From the sequence record PQ423993.1: a DNA stretch of 45,658 bases. One strand, written 5' to 3'. Position 1 is the first letter of the stretch, and every line of letters starts with the position of its first letter. The notes under the pieces are model-generated. The model made no database searches. It worked only from the letters and a program-made list of their open reading frames with translations, and was not told where the DNA came from. The translations under genes were made by a program, and so were the position numbers. Below, piece by piece: positions 7,159 to 39,816 of this stretch. Source of the stretch: Escherichia phage vB_VIPECOMC04.

Positions 7159-7192
7159 AACCTTCACTCCTCAGTCTCGTTTCGATAAGTGA

Positions 7193-20272: not shown

Positions 20273-20408
20273 ACGTCATAGCCCCGATTCCGGCATTGCA
20301 AAAACGTATCAAGGAACTCGAGGAGGAGGTTCTACGCCTACGGCAGCAGAGAGATGCCGCTAATGCGCAACTGGCGTTTGTACTGGAGAAGCTATCGGAA
20401 GAGTAGAG

Positions 20409-29047: not shown

Positions 29048-29414
29048 CGTTTCTACCCTCGAAAATAGCGTCTAAGCTCATGATGATGTCAGATTCAAAC
29101 ATGCCTATATCCTGGCCTGAAACTGTGCTGTATGCCACTAAATCCGACCATCTTAACTGTTCGCGCGGGTACATCTTGATACCATCATCGTCCACTCGGC
29201 GGGTGAATTTGATTTCCCTGTACTTCTCGAAGGTGGTTAATAGCTCAGGGGGGCATTCCGGCCCTGTGTCCTGCGTTGCTTCCGGCGCGTCTTGCATAAC
29301 CCCCATAGCAATTAGCGCGGCTTTATGCCCGTCGGCGATACTGTCAAACTCCCGCCGTTTGTGGCGGGTTATGAAGTTCCAACGGGCAAACTGGAGCAAC
29401 GCGTCTACTTTTCC
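29040..29414 (-). CDS. tail assembly chaperone GT extension (-1 frame)
   Basis: Frame open in -1 relative to the G-like gene from the GGAAAAG site (29408-29414, minus strand) to the stop at 29040. Confidence 0.45.
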   Translation of the reverse strand, partial: GKVDALLQFARWNFITRHKRREFDSIADGHKAALIAMGVMQDAPEATQDTGPECPPELLTTFEKYREIKFTRRVDDDGIKMYPREQLRWSDLVAYSTVSGQDIGMFESDIIMSLDAIFEGRNDG

Positions 29415-29821
29415 TGCAATTGGTGGAGCTGTTCATTGTGGAAAACAACAACGTGTTCAGCGAGTCGTTTATATTGTGAGAAAAGAGTATTCAGGTTCTC
29501 TTTATTAAATTCATCGTCGAGACTCCAACCGTTAACCAGTTCAAGCGCTAACTGGCGGTTAAGGTCCGTTGCGGCGTCTTCCATCTTGATGTTGTATTCC
29601 GAGAAATCTTTCAGTTCCTCGCATTTATCGCGAAGCGGTTTCAATTTACCTAATGCCGCGCGGTACGCAAGTGTAAACGCCCTCATAGCTTTAACAGCAA
29701 CGTCTGCCTCCGGTGAAACAACGTTCAGCCACTCCCCTGAATCGGTGCCGTCTTTCAGTGGTATCGGCATACGGGCGCCTTTTTCTGCCTCAGCTTCGTA
29801 ATAAAAATCAGAAAGTTTCAT
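29405..29821 (-). CDS. tail assembly chaperone (gpG-like)
   Basis: ORF track; immediately upstream of the tape measure gene; slippery heptamer at its 3' end. Confidence 0.5.
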   Translation of the reverse strand: MKLSDFYYEAEAEKGARMPIPLKDGTDSGEWLNVVSPEADVAVKAMRAFTLAYRAALGKLKPLRDKCEELKDFSEYNIKMEDAATDLNRQLALELVNGWSLDDEFNKENLNTLFSQYKRLAEHVVVFHNEQLHQLQEK

Positions 29822-29929
29822 TCTTTAATCCTTTGGTTAAGAGGTTACAGGTTAATGGTAAATGCGCCAGACGGGAACCACCCGCTTTTCGTGTGCGACA
29901 CTAGGCGCAAAATTATTCTATCACATTAC

Positions 29930-29958
29930 TTGCGCACCCCAACATAATAGGATACTAT
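29930..29958 (+). promoter_or_regulatory. sigma70-like promoter (class B) with operator palindrome
   Basis: TTGCGC-17-TACTAT; palindrome TAATAGG-at-ACTATTC at 29945-29960; drives the plus-strand moron cassette. Confidence 0.55.
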
Positions 29959-29999
29959 TCACTTACACCAACAATGTTAACTCAAACAGGAGCTACACC

Positions 30000-30191
30000 A
30001 TGACAGGTATTACTATGTTCTTCTTAATCATTATCGTTTTAGTTTATTTTATCCCGTTTTTAGTGGCCCATATGCGGGGTCATAAAGCGAAATTAGCGAT
30101 ATTCATGGCCAATCTGTTTCTTGGCTGGGTTCTGCTGCCGTGGGTATTTATTTTAATCTGGGCTTGCAACTCGAATGTCAAAGAGAAGTGA
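30000..30191 (+). CDS. superinfection-immunity-like small membrane protein
   Basis: ATG 30000 with AGGAG upstream; YFIPFLVAHMRGHKAKLAIFMANLFLGWVLLPWVFILIWAC resembles the superinfection immunity family as recalled. Confidence 0.5.
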   Translation: MTGITMFFLIIIVLVYFIPFLVAHMRGHKAKLAIFMANLFLGWVLLPWVFILIWACNSNVKEK

Positions 30192-30230
30192 GCTAGTATA
30201 GGACAAATCCTAAACGCGAGGAAGTAAAGC

Positions 30231-31361
30231 ATGGCCCAGATTAAAATAACCGACGAACAGTTACAGGAAGAATTGAACGCCGGAACAAAGATTATCGACA
30301 TATCCCGTAAATACGGCATCTCAGACCGAGTTATTCGTATCCGTAAAGCGAAGCTGGCGAAGAAAGGCGTAGGTCACGGTCGTGACGTTAGCCATCTTGT
30401 CCCGGACGGCTACAAGATTAAAGGCACGTCGTCACTTGTTGACGAGTTCGGCAACACTAAACTGCAATGGGTTAAGACTGATACCGACGCCGAACGTCAG
30501 GTTGAATTGATGAAAGCCGTAATTGAAGGCATGAAGTCAGAGATTACGCCCGTTGCGCCTGTTAAAGCTGTTCGCGCCAAACGCGACGACAAGCTACTCA
30601 ATCTTTACACGGTATCTGATTTCCATCTCGGTATGCTGGCATGGGCTGATGAGAGCGGAGACGACTGGGACATGAAGATTGCAGAAGACCTGTTCTCCCG
30701 ATGGTTCGACGCGGCGTTCCAGAAAGCACCGGATGCAGGAACAGGAGTTATTAACCTTCTGGGCGACCTCGCTCACTTCGATAGTCTGGATGCGGTTACA
30801 CCTGCAAGTGGTCATGTTCTTGACGCGGACACGCGCTATCAGAAACTTGTACGCTACATGATTCGTATGGTCCGTCGTGTCGTTGATATGGCTCTGGTTA
30901 AACATAAAAATGTTCGCTTGCTTATCGTGCAAGGGAATCACGACGAAAGTGGCATGATTTGGTTGGCTGAGATGTTCAGCACGCTGTACGACAATGAGCC
31001 GCGTGTGTTCGTCGATACGTCGCCGGATGTTTACAAGATGGTGCAACACGGCAAAACGACGCTGTTCTTCCATCACGGACATAAAGCACGCTTCGACGCT
31101 ATCGAACCGATTATGATTGCCAAGTTCCGCAAAGCGTTCGGCGAGAGCGTTTACAGCTACGCCCACGTAGGCCACCTGCACCACCAGAAGATTGTAGAAA
31201 GCCGTAACATGGTTGTTGAGCAACACCGCACCCTGGCGGCTAAAGACGCCTACGCCTCTCGCGGCGGATGGATGTCAGGTCGTAGTGCAAATGTAATTAC
31301 TTATAGCGCCGAATATGGCGAGGTCGCACGTTTAACTATTTCACCGGAGATGCTGGGATGA
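30231..31361 (+). CDS. metallophosphoesterase (calcineurin-like) with N-terminal HTH
   Basis: Ordered motifs VSDFHLG, GDLAHFD, GNHDES, FFHHGH, GHLHH; N-terminal IIDISRKYGISDRVIRIRKAKL looks HTH-like. Confidence 0.7.
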   Translation: MAQIKITDEQLQEELNAGTKIIDISRKYGISDRVIRIRKAKLAKKGVGHGRDVSHLVPDGYKIKGTSSLVDEFGNTKLQWVKTDTDAERQVELMKAVIEGMKSEITPVAPVKAVRAKRDDKLLNLYTVSDFHLGMLAWADESGDDWDMKIAEDLFSRWFDAAFQKAPDAGTGVINLLGDLAHFDSLDAVTPASGHVLDADTRYQKLVRYMIRMVRRVVDMALVKHKNVRLLIVQGNHDESGMIWLAEMFSTLYDNEPRVFVDTSPDVYKMVQHGKTTLFFHHGHKARFDAIEPIMIAKFRKAFGESVYSYAHVGHLHHQKIVESRNMVVEQHRTLAAKDAYASRGGWMSGRSANVITYSAEYGEVARLTISPEMLG

Positions 31362-31558
31362 AAGACATGTATGAATGCACCGAGGTAAGTCCGTATGCAG
31401 AGAAAAATGGGTTCGAAGTAGGTGCGGTGTACGAAGGAGTCACCCTAGAGAATGGCGATGTAAGAATGTATTCGCCTAAATATCGCAGCTTCTTTGAAAT
31501 AGGCAACATTAACGAGTCAGGCATAGCCAGATTTAAGAGAGTTAACAGTGACAAATAA
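31358..31558 (+). CDS. hypothetical protein
   Basis: ORF track; start overlaps the upstream stop. Confidence 0.35.
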   Translation: MKDMYECTEVSPYAEKNGFEVGAVYEGVTLENGDVRMYSPKYRSFFEIGNINESGIARFKRVNSDK

Positions 31559-31778
31559 ATACAACCGCACAATGACAAACACCTACGGCAGCACTATGAC
31601 TGTAGACGTTTACGATGTACTACGCGCATTCGATATACGCGACCCGGCGTTACAGCACGCATTGAAGAAGTTATTGTGCATGGGTCTTCGCGGCCACAAA
31701 GATACCGGGACAGACTTAGCGGAAGCAATTGAAAGTCTGGAGAAGTTACGGGAGTACCGAAGCAATATTGATGAGTAA
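31548..31778 (+). CDS. hypothetical protein
   Basis: ORF track; last gene of the moron cassette. Confidence 0.35.
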   Translation: MTNKYNRTMTNTYGSTMTVDVYDVLRAFDIRDPALQHALKKLLCMGLRGHKDTGTDLAEAIESLEKLREYRSNIDE

Positions 31779-31810
31779 GAAAAAGGCCCCGAAAGGGGCC
31801 TTTTTCTTAC
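31776..31810. terminator. bidirectional intrinsic terminator
   Basis: AGGCCCC-gaaa-GGGGCCT flanked by an A-run upstream and TTTTCTT downstream. Confidence 0.65.
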
Positions 31811-32979
31811 GCGTAGCTAATACGCTGTATTACAATAGAAGATTGATATTGATTGCCTGTGGCCTGTCCTTCTATGCTCTGAGTGATTGACTCAGGCCCG
31901 CCAATCTCTGGTGTGACCGCCGTAAGTTCGGCACGTTTCAAACTGAAAGACATAGCCCCGTTTACCCCCGCCAGAATAGAGTTAATCTCTACCTGCTGCT
32001 CGTTGATAAACTTCTGAATCATCGCCATGTCGTACAGCTTACCGGAGATGGAGAAGGTGTTGGCCGCGCGGCTACGCTCAACAAATGCAACGTTAGTGTT
32101 GCCGAGTTCGAACTGCGCAGACGCGCTGTTATCGTTGGTGATGGTCAGGCTGTCGCAACGCAACGGCGTTGAGCCATCGAACACAGAAACGTCAACAGAG
32201 GAGAACGGCTCGTCACCAAACGTAACAGAAGAGAAATTAGAGCCGGACGGCGACGTAGCGAGAATCTCCTGGCTGCGCCCGATGAACGGGAAGCTGCCCG
32301 TTACCATCGCGTTAACTGCCTGCTCGACAGTGAAGCCAGAAACTTCCACGCCTTTGGTCAGTGTGTACGCGTCGGTCCCGCCGCACTGGCCTTTGTACCA
32401 GGTGAGAATAGAGAACGTCTTACACTGGCTACCGGTTTCCAGTTTGTCGCCGGTCTTAGCGTCGGTTGTTACGGTCTCGGTGGTCAGAGTATGTTGGATA
32501 CCCGCACCGGTGACAACAGTCGCACTTACCTCGGTTACAATAAACGGTTTTGCGTTGTCACCGGTTAAATCAGTGAACGCAATCAGGTCGCCTACTTCAA
32601 CGCCATCAGAAATAAAGCTGCCATCAGCACGGGTGAACGTCTTGCCCGCCGGTGCGACGGTAATTGACAGGTCAGTCAAGGATACACCTGATTGCCACGT
32701 AGAGCCTAAAGCCCCAGCTAACCAGTCGTCCTGGCTTTTCGAGCTAAGCTCGATCGCGTATTCACCGCTAACCTGTTTGTTACCGGTGCGGATGGATGTA
32801 GTTTCACGGCTGCCGTCCAGTTCGTTGGAGGTCAGCGTGTCGCGGGTAATAGCAGGAACACCGCCCGTGTTACGCAACGGCGACCATACCGGGTTAGTTG
32901 GTGTTACGCCAGGGGTGACTTCCGCCACATAGAATTGCGCGGTAGTCGCGCCCTTAAAAGGAGTTGTAGCCATATTCAC
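31807..32979 (-). CDS. major tail protein
   Basis: 390 aa, beta-rich; position between the tail completion genes and the chaperone/tape-measure genes. Confidence 0.5.
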   Translation of the reverse strand: MNMATTPFKGATTAQFYVAEVTPGVTPTNPVWSPLRNTGGVPAITRDTLTSNELDGSRETTSIRTGNKQVSGEYAIELSSKSQDDWLAGALGSTWQSGVSLTDLSITVAPAGKTFTRADGSFISDGVEVGDLIAFTDLTGDNAKPFIVTEVSATVVTGAGIQHTLTTETVTTDAKTGDKLETGSQCKTFSILTWYKGQCGGTDAYTLTKGVEVSGFTVEQAVNAMVTGSFPFIGRSQEILATSPSGSNFSSVTFGDEPFSSVDVSVFDGSTPLRCDSLTITNDNSASAQFELGNTNVAFVERSRAANTFSISGKLYDMAMIQKFINEQQVEINSILAGVNGAMSFSLKRAELTAVTPEIGGPESITQSIEGQATGNQYQSSIVIQRISYA

Positions 32980-39206: not shown

Positions 39207-39235
39207 TTGCGCGCACCAACATAATAGGGTACTAT
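39207..39235 (+). promoter_or_regulatory. sigma70-like promoter (class B) with operator palindrome
   Basis: TTGCGC-17-TACTAT; palindrome TAATAGG-gt-ACTATTC at 39222-39237; 28 nt upstream of the mini-clamp ATG. Confidence 0.55.
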
Positions 39236-39262
39236 TCGGTTAACTTAAACAGGAGATGAGAA

Positions 39263-39784
39263 ATGGTTACTACAGTAATTACTTTCCCTGCGTATGTAGG
39301 GGCGAAAATATGCAGGGCTAAAAATGATGTTCGCTACTATTTGAACGCTTTTTACATAGACCCTGAAGGATTGATAGTGTCTACGGACGGTCATAGATTG
39401 TTCTGCGACAATGTGAAGACCAACGTTGAGAAAGGGACTCTCATAGACATCAAAGGGAGAGAGCCTTCTAAATTTAACTACGCGGAGGTAAACCACGACA
39501 ACGGCAGTGTATCTTTCTATGACGATAATCGTGCGCTTATATGTACACTTCCGGTAGATGTTGTAGAAGGAAACTTTCCTGACTGGAGACGCGTGGTGCA
39601 CATCACACCGGGTGTTGTCGATAGTATAGGGTTCACCCTGCGCTATTTGGCAGACGCGTACAAGATTTCTAAGGCATACAAAAATGAAATTGCTCGTTTC
39701 GATTTCCAGGACCAAACCAGAGGATGTAAAATACTATTTTCAAACACGGCCTTTATGGTGTTAATGCCTGCGCGATTTAAATAA
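39263..39784 (+). CDS. truncated beta sliding clamp homolog (DnaN domain II plus C-terminal segment)
   Basis: DVRYYLN, TDGHRL, GNFPDWRRV, IGFTLRYLAD and VLMPARF align with E. coli DnaN DVRYYLN, TDGHRL, GRFPDYRRV, IGFNVSYVLD and VVMPMRL as recalled; AGGAG RBS; own promoter and terminator. Confidence 0.8.
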   Translation: MVTTVITFPAYVGAKICRAKNDVRYYLNAFYIDPEGLIVSTDGHRLFCDNVKTNVEKGTLIDIKGREPSKFNYAEVNHDNGSVSFYDDNRALICTLPVDVVEGNFPDWRRVVHITPGVVDSIGFTLRYLADAYKISKAYKNEIARFDFQDQTRGCKILFSNTAFMVLMPARFK

Positions 39785-39788
39785 AACT

Positions 39789-39816
39789 AAGGCCCCTTAC
39801 GGGGCCTTTTATCATT
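39789..39816. terminator. bidirectional intrinsic terminator
   Basis: AAGGCCCC-ttac-GGGGCCTT with TTTTATCATT downstream and an A-run upstream. Confidence 0.65.

Follow-up and report, generated by a model that had tools for sequence, protein, structure and literature searches.

Protein A1 of phage T5, a predicted metallophosphoesterase (MPE), is both necessary and sufficient for degradation of host DNA, and its structural neighbours are double-strand-break-repair nucleases and polymerase proofreading subunits (bioRxiv 10.64898/2026.04.02.716235). Gp48 of mycobacteriophage A10ZJ24, an MPE with phosphodiesterase activity, breaks up the genomic DNA of the host, and defence genes are silenced as a result (PMC12287305). 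Phages T1 and TLS also degrade the genome of their host, and the authors of that study could not identify the responsible gene (PMC11447400, 2024); host-genome degradation by T1 is confirmed from further literature. Here, we analyse a stretch of 45,658 nucleotides (the window) from Escherichia phage vB_VIPECOMC04 (PQ423993.1) and, within it, a four-gene cassette whose second gene encodes an MPE preceded by a helix-turn-helix (HTH) domain. The window is an apparently complete Kagunavirus (Guernseyvirinae) genome of ~45.7 kb, colinear with phage vB_VIPECOTPH05A.

The cassette is a self-contained transcription unit, with predicted promoter and terminator, which lies antisense between the tail tube and chaperone genes and is typical of Guernseyvirinae. 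Siphoviruses usually carry these genes in the order tail tube, chaperone, tape measure, and the cassette interrupts this order here. An earlier note, made from the letters of this DNA, had described four plus-strand open reading frames (ORFs) running against the tail genes, and all four were located exactly. It had also placed them between the tail chaperone and a major tail gene; the flanks are indeed the minus-strand chaperone and tail tube genes. The genes and the domains of gene 2 are the following.

30000-30191, plus strand: gene 1 (Sii), 63 amino acids (aa), ATG start, AGGAG 8 nt upstream
30231-31361, plus strand: gene 2 (HTH-MPE), 376 aa
30231-30365, plus strand: N-terminal HTH domain of gene 2, residues 1-45, model helices 8-16, 21-28 and 32-43
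30585-31361, plus strand: MPE catalytic domain of gene 2, residues 119-376, defined by motifs and fold
31358-31558, plus strand: gene 3 (orf66), 66 aa, ATGA overlap with gene 2
31548-31778, plus strand: gene 4 (orf76), 76 aa, GTG start, overlapping gene 3
29405-29821, minus strand: tail assembly chaperone, left neighbour of the cassette
31807-32979, minus strand: tail tube gene, right neighbour of the cassette

Good ribosome-binding sites precede genes 1 and 2, and genes 3 and 4 each overlap the preceding gene. As a sequence feature the cassette is not new, since published genomes of Kagunavirus and Jerseyvirus phages already show its four genes together with the promoter motif and the terminator. 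The records of Schulenburg and fBC-Eco01 list a superinfection immunity protein, a phosphoesterase or DNA polymerase II small subunit, and hypothetical proteins, together with a PHIRE-predicted promoter and two opposed terminators. Across the 2.1-kb cassette region, identity to Escherichia phage Schulenburg amounts to 94.7%, and matching sequence is present in 450 phage records, nearly all of them Kagunavirus and Jerseyvirus phages (Guernseyvirinae).

The explanation that we favour, and on which we are evenly divided between acceptance and doubt, couples an Imm-like gene 1 to an HTH-tethered, Mre11/SbcD-like DNase encoded by gene 2 and directed at host DNA. Gene 2 would form the constant part of the cassette and encode a two-metal phosphodiesterase of the Mre11/SbcD type that works alone and that the N-terminal HTH would tether to DNA. 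By analogy with T5 A1 and mycobacteriophage gp48, this enzyme could cut the host chromosome, leading to host shut-off and nucleotide salvage. Gene 1 would be an inner-membrane protein of the T4 Imm family and, again by analogy, may block DNA entry of superinfecting phages.

Motifs, fold and family of the HTH-MPE

The motif set of the calcineurin-like MPE superfamily (DxH, GD, GNH[DE], H, GHxH) is complete in gene 2, where it reads D130-x-H132, G178-D179-x-x-H182, G235-N236-H237-D238, H281-H-G-H284 and G314-H-x-H317. Among 125 sequences D130/H132, G178/D179, G235-N-H-D238, H282/H284 and G314/H315/H317 are invariant, and the catalytic motifs mostly remain so among 8 distant phage lineages. Two initial homolog searches gave only proteins at least 88% identical; a third one, seeded with a Rhodobacter phage homolog, gave the needed diversity. 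An AlphaFold2 model computed on the 125-homolog alignment (mean pLDDT 79.3) comprises a three-helix N-terminal domain, a β-hairpin with a helix and, from residue 119, an MPE domain with a predicted β-sandwich fold typical of MPEs. The N-terminal domain is matched by the Pfam family HTH_1 in 83 of the 125 homologs and by HTH_50 in 54 of them, and that of gene 2 shows weak matches to GerE, LrpA and LysR. The fusion of an HTH to an MPE with all motifs, proposed in the earlier note, is thus borne out by the located motifs, the modelled helices and the Pfam matches. The catalytic domain itself stays below the Pfam gathering scores (Metallophos 18.7 vs 21.5; Metallophos_2 21.3 vs 27), and a Metallophos-type match at E<=0.01 was obtained for only 12/125 homologs. 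The MPE domain is divergent, and its assignment rests on motifs and fold.

Gene 2 matches phrog_704 with an E-value of 1.8e-164 over residues 5-375; the name of this group, 'DNA repair exonuclease', is an automatic label. One member is gp16 of phage T1 (ST16), with 45% identity over the full length (E 1e-114). Both proteins consist of an HTH followed by an MPE in ~376 aa, and T1 gp16 itself matches the PHROG 704 profile at 7.2e-155. Judged by sequence, gene 2 is an ortholog of T1 gp16. The genes differ in location, that of T1 lying between dam and the lysis cassette and gene 2 antisense within the tail genes. GenBank records name the gene 2 protein variously as phosphoesterase, DNA repair exonuclease, DNA polymerase II small subunit, Ser/Thr phosphatase, acid phosphatase or winged-HTH protein. 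Within its own length, gene 2 is also a mosaic. In the catalytic domain it shares 86% identity with Dhillonvirus rolling and only 49% with Jerseyvirus LDW16, a phage of its own subfamily, and in the linker region the relation is reversed (50% and 88%, respectively). A divergent catalytic allele, with 55-59% identity, is found in 6/33 related loci.

Searches of the PDB sequences with the gene 2 protein and with the hidden Markov model of the 125 homologs (E up to 10) found no MPE chain, and the subfamily placement therefore rests on the predicted structure. The placement proposed in the earlier note could accordingly be made by structure and not by sequence profile. In the structure search, the model of gene 2 scored highest against Mre11 (14.6), SbcD (14.3) and the PolD DP1 exonuclease (14.1), followed by the Pol delta B subunit and MJ0936 (13.7 each), Vps29 (13.2), Rv0805 and GpdQ (12.0), LpxH (11.5) and, at 8.9 or below, PP5 and PP1. 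Foldseek gave the same ranking, and identity to the ranked structures is 10-18%. On the model, Mre11/SbcD are the closest neighbours, and class III cyclic nucleoside monophosphate phosphodiesterases (CpdA, Rv0805, GpdQ), which share the superfamily and the motif set with gene 2, are not. The GDxHG, GDxVDRG and GNHE motifs and the close fold that characterize the PPP phosphatases are not found, as gene 2 reads SDFHLG and GNHD. In the predicted structure, gene 2 is nearest to the nuclease branch, clearly off the lambda-type phosphatases and somewhat further from the CpdA-like phosphodiesterases. The gradient of scores is shallow, and the fold ranking of this model does not settle the substrate. 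From Mre11, SbcD and PolD DP1 the enzyme differs by its low identity (only 10-16%), by the lack of a sequence-profile match and by its architecture, since an N-terminal HTH and β-hairpin module replaces the C-terminal capping domain of these nucleases.

Candidate substrates of gene 2

The closest structural neighbours of the model are nucleases, and a DNA-binding HTH is joined to the catalytic domain; both features suggest DNA as the substrate, and gene 2 is probably a DNase. That the host chromosome is its specific target is a possibility to which we lean with some reserve. Such a breakdown is conceivable because T5 A1 and gp48 provide precedents and because T1 carries an ortholog of gene 2 and degrades the genome of its host.

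T5 A1, a pre-early protein, resembles gene 2 in being a predicted MPE, in the terms in which its structural neighbours are described and in working with a DNA-binding protein, A2. It differs in belonging to phrog_1745, in its length (556 aa) and in having the DNA-binding function on a separate protein. The T5 segment 1706-4134 carries, in this order, A2 (DNA-binding), T5.005 (a 65-aa two-transmembrane peptide) and A1 (MPE). The location of T5.005 just upstream of A1 parallels the pair of gene 1 and gene 2, without detectable sequence similarity; T5.005 was rejected as an Imm homolog. The MPEs of cluster A mycobacteriophages (A10ZJ24 gp48, Bxb1 gp47) are likewise phage MPEs; they differ from gene 2 in belonging to phrog_221, in their 255 aa and in having no HTH. 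A specific relationship of gene 2 with T5 A1 or Bxb1 gp47 was also rejected: they are assigned to different PHROGs, and hhalign aligns 17-19 columns around GNHD (motif III).

Several observations weigh against a host-directed DNase. The hhalign probability against the gene 2 family is 23% for T5 A1 and 8% for gp48, and the transfer of function is an analogy. Mre11/SbcD normally requires a Rad50/SbcC partner, and none is encoded adjacent to gene 2 or among the genes annotated in a genome that is 98% related; the gene 2 protein, in this respect different from Mre11/SbcD, appears to act alone. The model is poor in the active-site loops 138-145, 185-201 and 340-347. The literature searched held no experimental or functional study of any member of the HTH-MPE family. 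Finally, the transcriptome of Kagunavirus K1B4, sampled at 5-120 min, classes the Sii gene as 'late' (PMC12645636); its timing is coarse and the MPE is not reported, and it was set aside as uninformative on timing. A genome-wide knockdown screen of PTXU04 was not used either, the gene content of this phage being different (92 coding sequences, among them that of a 2,198-aa polyvalent protein).

The genes found next to the MPE in other phages encode a polynucleotide kinase and a dNMP kinase in Yersinia vB_YenM_27, a polynucleotide kinase and a HAD hydrolase in Klebsiella SBP, ThyX and a dCMP deaminase in Ruegeria V13, ThyX in RcGingersnap and a DNA ligase in CP30A. These neighbours fit nucleotide salvage and are also compatible with DNA-end processing. 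Lysis genes adjoin the HTH-MPE in 6/11 inspected lineages, which are unrelated to one another, namely T1, pSf-1, rolling, RcGingersnap, Vibrio K137 and Yersinia vB_YenM_27.

The same nuclease fold could also serve the phage's own DNA, by processing ends, hairpins or branches, either in the course of recombination-dependent replication or ahead of packaging. Indeed, Mre11, SbcD and DP1 are end-processing or proofreading nucleases, the label of PHROG 704 implies such a role, and a phrog_3007 gene, labelled RusA-like resolvase and clamp-like, is located behind the same class of promoter. The ligase of CP30A and the polynucleotide kinases of SBP and YenM_27 would suit this role, as would the position of the Dhillonvirus MPE gene directly upstream of the small terminase subunit. 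In most lineages, however, the MPE lies outside the replication and recombination module, often beside lysis genes, and the phage already has a pair of exonuclease and annealing protein in its early region. The lack of a Rad50/SbcC-like partner counts here as well, and we know of no end-processing MPE nuclease with an N-terminal sequence-reading HTH. We consider a role on phage DNA unlikely, though it deserves to be kept in view as the principal alternative.

More distant readings of gene 2 dispense with a nuclease. The earlier note had raised the idea of a cyclic-nucleotide phosphodiesterase that would degrade host immune messengers; in a wider form, a cyclic-nucleotide or cyclic-oligonucleotide phosphodiesterase would destroy those of CBASS, Pycsar, Thoeris or type III CRISPR. 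The accumulation of accessory genes at the locus would agree with it, as would the replacement of the catalytic-domain allele (55% vs 88-99% within one subfamily), which is common in arms-race genes. In both structure searches, however, nucleases rank above the phosphodiesterases Rv0805 and GpdQ, and a messenger-degrading enzyme would have no role for the fused DNA-binding HTH. Furthermore, several virulent phage families carry the gene almost universally, its composition is native, and the BASEL phenotyping of Kagunaviruses shows ordinary defence sensitivity with no unusual resistance. Known anti-signalling phosphodiesterases have other folds, Acb1 being a 2H enzyme and Apyc1 a metallo-β-lactamase. 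PADLOC and NCBIfam gave no match for any of the four cassette proteins, and no paper linking the HTH-MPE family to immune messengers was found in the literature searched. The idea appears very improbable; because the fold ranking is shallow, we treat it as disfavoured only. A protein that is mainly a transcription regulator, joined to a small-molecule or protein phosphatase comparable to lambda phosphatase or to bifunctional regulator-enzymes, is about as improbable. Autoregulating HTH-enzyme fusions such as BirA and NadR are known, a palindromic site accompanies all promoter-like elements of this genome, and some GenBank records call the homolog of gene 2 a Ser/Thr or acid phosphatase. Against this, the motifs are SDFHLG and GNHD rather than GDxHG and GNHE, the palindrome is missing from loci of T1, Dhillonvirus and Drexlerviridae in which members of this family are encoded, and versions without the HTH exist in Campylobacter and Ruegeria phages.

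Small genes and predicted control elements

Gene 1 matches the Pfam family PF14373 (Imm_superinfect) with 51.6 bits (cut-off 27.9; 8.7e-14), covering all 42 model positions, and phrog_1039 at 1.4e-23. Its hydropathy profile shows two hydrophobic segments, residues ~4-23 and ~31-55, with a basic loop between them. The description of gene 1 in the earlier note, as a 63-aa two-helix membrane protein resembling superinfection-immunity proteins, agrees with these results. The likeness to T4 Imm lies in the small size, the two transmembrane helices and the score above the Pfam threshold, and the Schulenburg record notes a BLASTp similarity of its gene 1 homolog to T4 Imm. T4 Imm has 83 aa; gene 1 differs in having 63 aa and in being located in a siphovirus. 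An exclusion phenotype for any Guernseyvirinae homolog of gene 1 was not found in the literature searched. Gene 1 is present in 380 phage records, mostly of Guernseyvirinae, some of which start it as a 109-aa ORF. This longer ORF would include the promoter, and in a relative with a different first gene the conservation upstream of 30000 stops exactly after the promoter; for these reasons the 63-aa start is preferable.

Gene 3 is translationally coupled, occurs in only 5/33 related loci and had no family match in the Pfam and PHROG profile searches; it was rejected as a homolog of the Dhillonvirus gene downstream of the MPE. Gene 4 is a member of phrog_2452, with 91% identity in Jerseyvirus LDW16 and a presence in 773 phage records; the idea that it is a remnant of the LDW16 Rha/ANT protein was rejected.

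The elements in and beside the intergenic regions are the following.

29930-29958, plus strand: class B promoter-like element, -35 TTGCGC at 29930-29935, 17-nt spacer, -10 TACTAT at 29953-29958
29946-29959, no strand: palindrome AATAGGATACTATT, i.e. AATAG-N4-CTATT, common to all promoter-like sites of the genome
29952-29980, minus strand: candidate divergent promoter TTAACA-17-TAGTAT towards the tail chaperone and tape-measure operon, a weak candidate from the consensus scan
31775-31810, no strand: bidirectional intrinsic terminator predicted by folding, common to the cassette and the tail tube gene
29847-29911, minus strand: int-alpA-like structured RNA of 65 nt in the leader of the tail chaperone and tape-measure operon, adjoining the cassette and not part of it

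The cassette has its own predicted sigma-70-like promoter. The 36-nt element 29930-29965, which the earlier note had called a class B promoter, is a genuine repeated element, with three copies in the genome at 29930 (+), 39207 (+) and 7182 (-, inverted); its promoter activity is predicted. All three copies read TTGCRC-17 nt-TACTAT and have a start codon in the same orientation 8, 27 or 41 nt downstream, and the leader AAACAGGAG is common to both copies of the plus strand. The other two copies precede a DNA-metabolism gene at 39263-39784 and a leftward operon that begins at 7167. Ahead of the rightward replication genes, the promoter-like sites are of a second class, TTGACA...TATAGT. A generic sigma-70 consensus scan did not exceed chance (4 sites vs 3.8 expected). 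In the paper on fBC-Eco01 (PMC9825357), an identical consensus is reported as a PHIRE 'phage promoter' and the equivalent site is annotated.

Both promoter classes, TTGACA...TATAGT and TTGCRC...TACTAT, carry the AATAG-N4-CTATT palindrome. Eight exact copies of it occur in the genome (6197, 6355, 7192, 10648, 13111, 17670, 29946 and 39223) and none in T1. With one-mismatch sites at 2432, 10604 and 39132, there are 11 matches at <=1 mismatch vs 0.96 expected. The palindrome is specific to Guernseyvirinae and was not seen in the T1, Dhillonvirus or Drexlerviridae loci with the HTH-MPE family. It could be either the site of a dimeric regulator or two overlapping divergent -10 elements. As a binding site of the HTH-MPE it is disfavoured, because T1 and other carriers of the family lack it. 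At the place of the divergent promoter candidate, Jerseyvirus LDW16 reads TTGACG-17-TATTAA off the alignment, which is again weak evidence.

The bidirectional terminator named in the earlier note corresponds to a perfect 16-bp hairpin, GTAAGAAAAAGGCCCC/GAAA/GGGGCCTTTTTCTTAC (dG -35.5 kcal/mol, z -7.3), that has A and T tracts to either side and reaches into the stop codons of both converging genes. Similar hairpins, GGCCCC-N4-GGGGCC, occur at 20403 and 39782. The latter closes a second plus-strand island, 39207-39810, which consists of a single gene within the minus-strand structural genes. This island has the same promoter and leader, contains the phrog_3007 gene (labelled RusA-like resolvase, with weak similarity to sliding-clamp families) and ends with the same type of terminator, GGCCCC-N4-GGGGCC, at 39782-39810.

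The int-alpA-like RNA is located between the divergent promoter region and the start codon of the chaperone. Over the full-length model of Rfam RF02996 it scores 32.5 bits (E 1.9e-5), below the gathering score of 35.8. The match is repeated in two relatives, and the element recurs in 50 IMG/VR contigs. Across two genera, Kagunavirus and Jerseyvirus, this is the best-conserved intergenic part, and its conservation exceeds that of the flanking coding sequence. In 12 distinct variants of the three-helix structure, 94.4% of the cells pair vs 31-56% with the partners slid; helix 3 was fixed by the search pattern, and the variants trace to few independent events. Four pairs show compensatory change, and the G-U pairs, as read off the alignment, are consistent only with the minus strand. 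The minus-strand leader as a whole has no unusual fold stability (z 0.24), its structured part being the 65-nt core; three (U/C)AACC repeats follow the RNA, ahead of the ribosome-binding site. The RNA might control the operon that the plus-strand cassette cuts off from the tail tube gene.

Distribution of the cassette and its significance

The variability of the locus was assessed in 33 Guernseyvirinae loci from IMG/VR with enough flanking sequence. The MPE is present in 32/33 loci, Sii in 25/33, orf76 in 23/33 and orf66 in 5/33, and relatives carry as extras an HNH endonuclease, a Rha/ANT protein or another small ORF. The G+C content of the MPE gene (50.6%) is that of a native gene (genome, 50.7%); Sii (39%) and orf66 (42%) are AT-rich. 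The site is an accessory-gene hotspot around a conserved enzyme. In a distant relative, whose tail tube is 64% identical, a single small plus-strand ORF (phrog_5031, 1422-1868) lies between chaperone and tail tube with no MPE there, and this relative still keeps the int-alpA-like core sequence.

The term moron, applied to the whole cassette in the earlier note, describes the small genes, which vary among relatives, and does not describe the MPE, with its near-constant presence, native composition and spread over virulent lineages, T1 included. The unit resembles lambdoid morons in having its own predicted promoter and terminator, in its location between two late genes and in its variable small genes. 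It differs in that the phage is virulent and that the main gene is conserved, compositionally native and found in many phage families.

At 50% identity, the HTH-MPE family has 4,633 representatives, mostly of 375-420 aa; for 1,144 the E-value is <=1e-30. Members are present in 2,052 phage records, and those lineages that we inspected belong to virulent types. Its carriers include Guernseyvirinae, Dhillonvirus, Drexlerviridae, Casjensviridae, Vibrio phages, Campylobacter Eucampyvirinae and N4-like Ruegeria phages; the Campylobacter and Ruegeria phages have versions of the MPE without the HTH. A DNA-level search of 5,426 complete E. coli genomes, which would miss divergent prophage copies, gave no DNA homologous to gene 2. 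Among 72,556 plasmid records, 5 matched gene 2, four of them phage-sized (44-50 kb). We count this distribution in favour of the explanation preferred above, with the limit just given for the genome search. The 'plasmid' record CP088689.1, 44 kb long and derived from an E. coli blood isolate, contains an MPE with 93% identity; its length is that of a Kagunavirus genome, and it probably represents a phage genome that was submitted as a plasmid.

We advance only very tentatively, as a proposal more apt to fail than to hold, that the family of T1 gp16 and PHROG 704 is the destroyer of the host chromosome in T1-like, Dhillonvirus and Guernseyvirinae siphoviruses, with the HTH tethering an Mre11-like nuclease. 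If this were so, the MPE fold would have been recruited independently for a third time to destroy host DNA. Loss of a T1 gp16-type enzyme would explain the T1 mutants of 1981, which do not degrade host DNA and transduce at high frequency. Phages with an HTH-MPE would be predicted to be sensitive to defences that sense m6dAMP from degraded host DNA. The proposal would thus bear on generalized transduction by therapeutic phages and on the triggering of defences that sense degradation products. The interest of the locus lies in this large phage family, which includes the classic phage T1 and offers a concrete candidate for the gene responsible for host-genome degradation by T1 and TLS.

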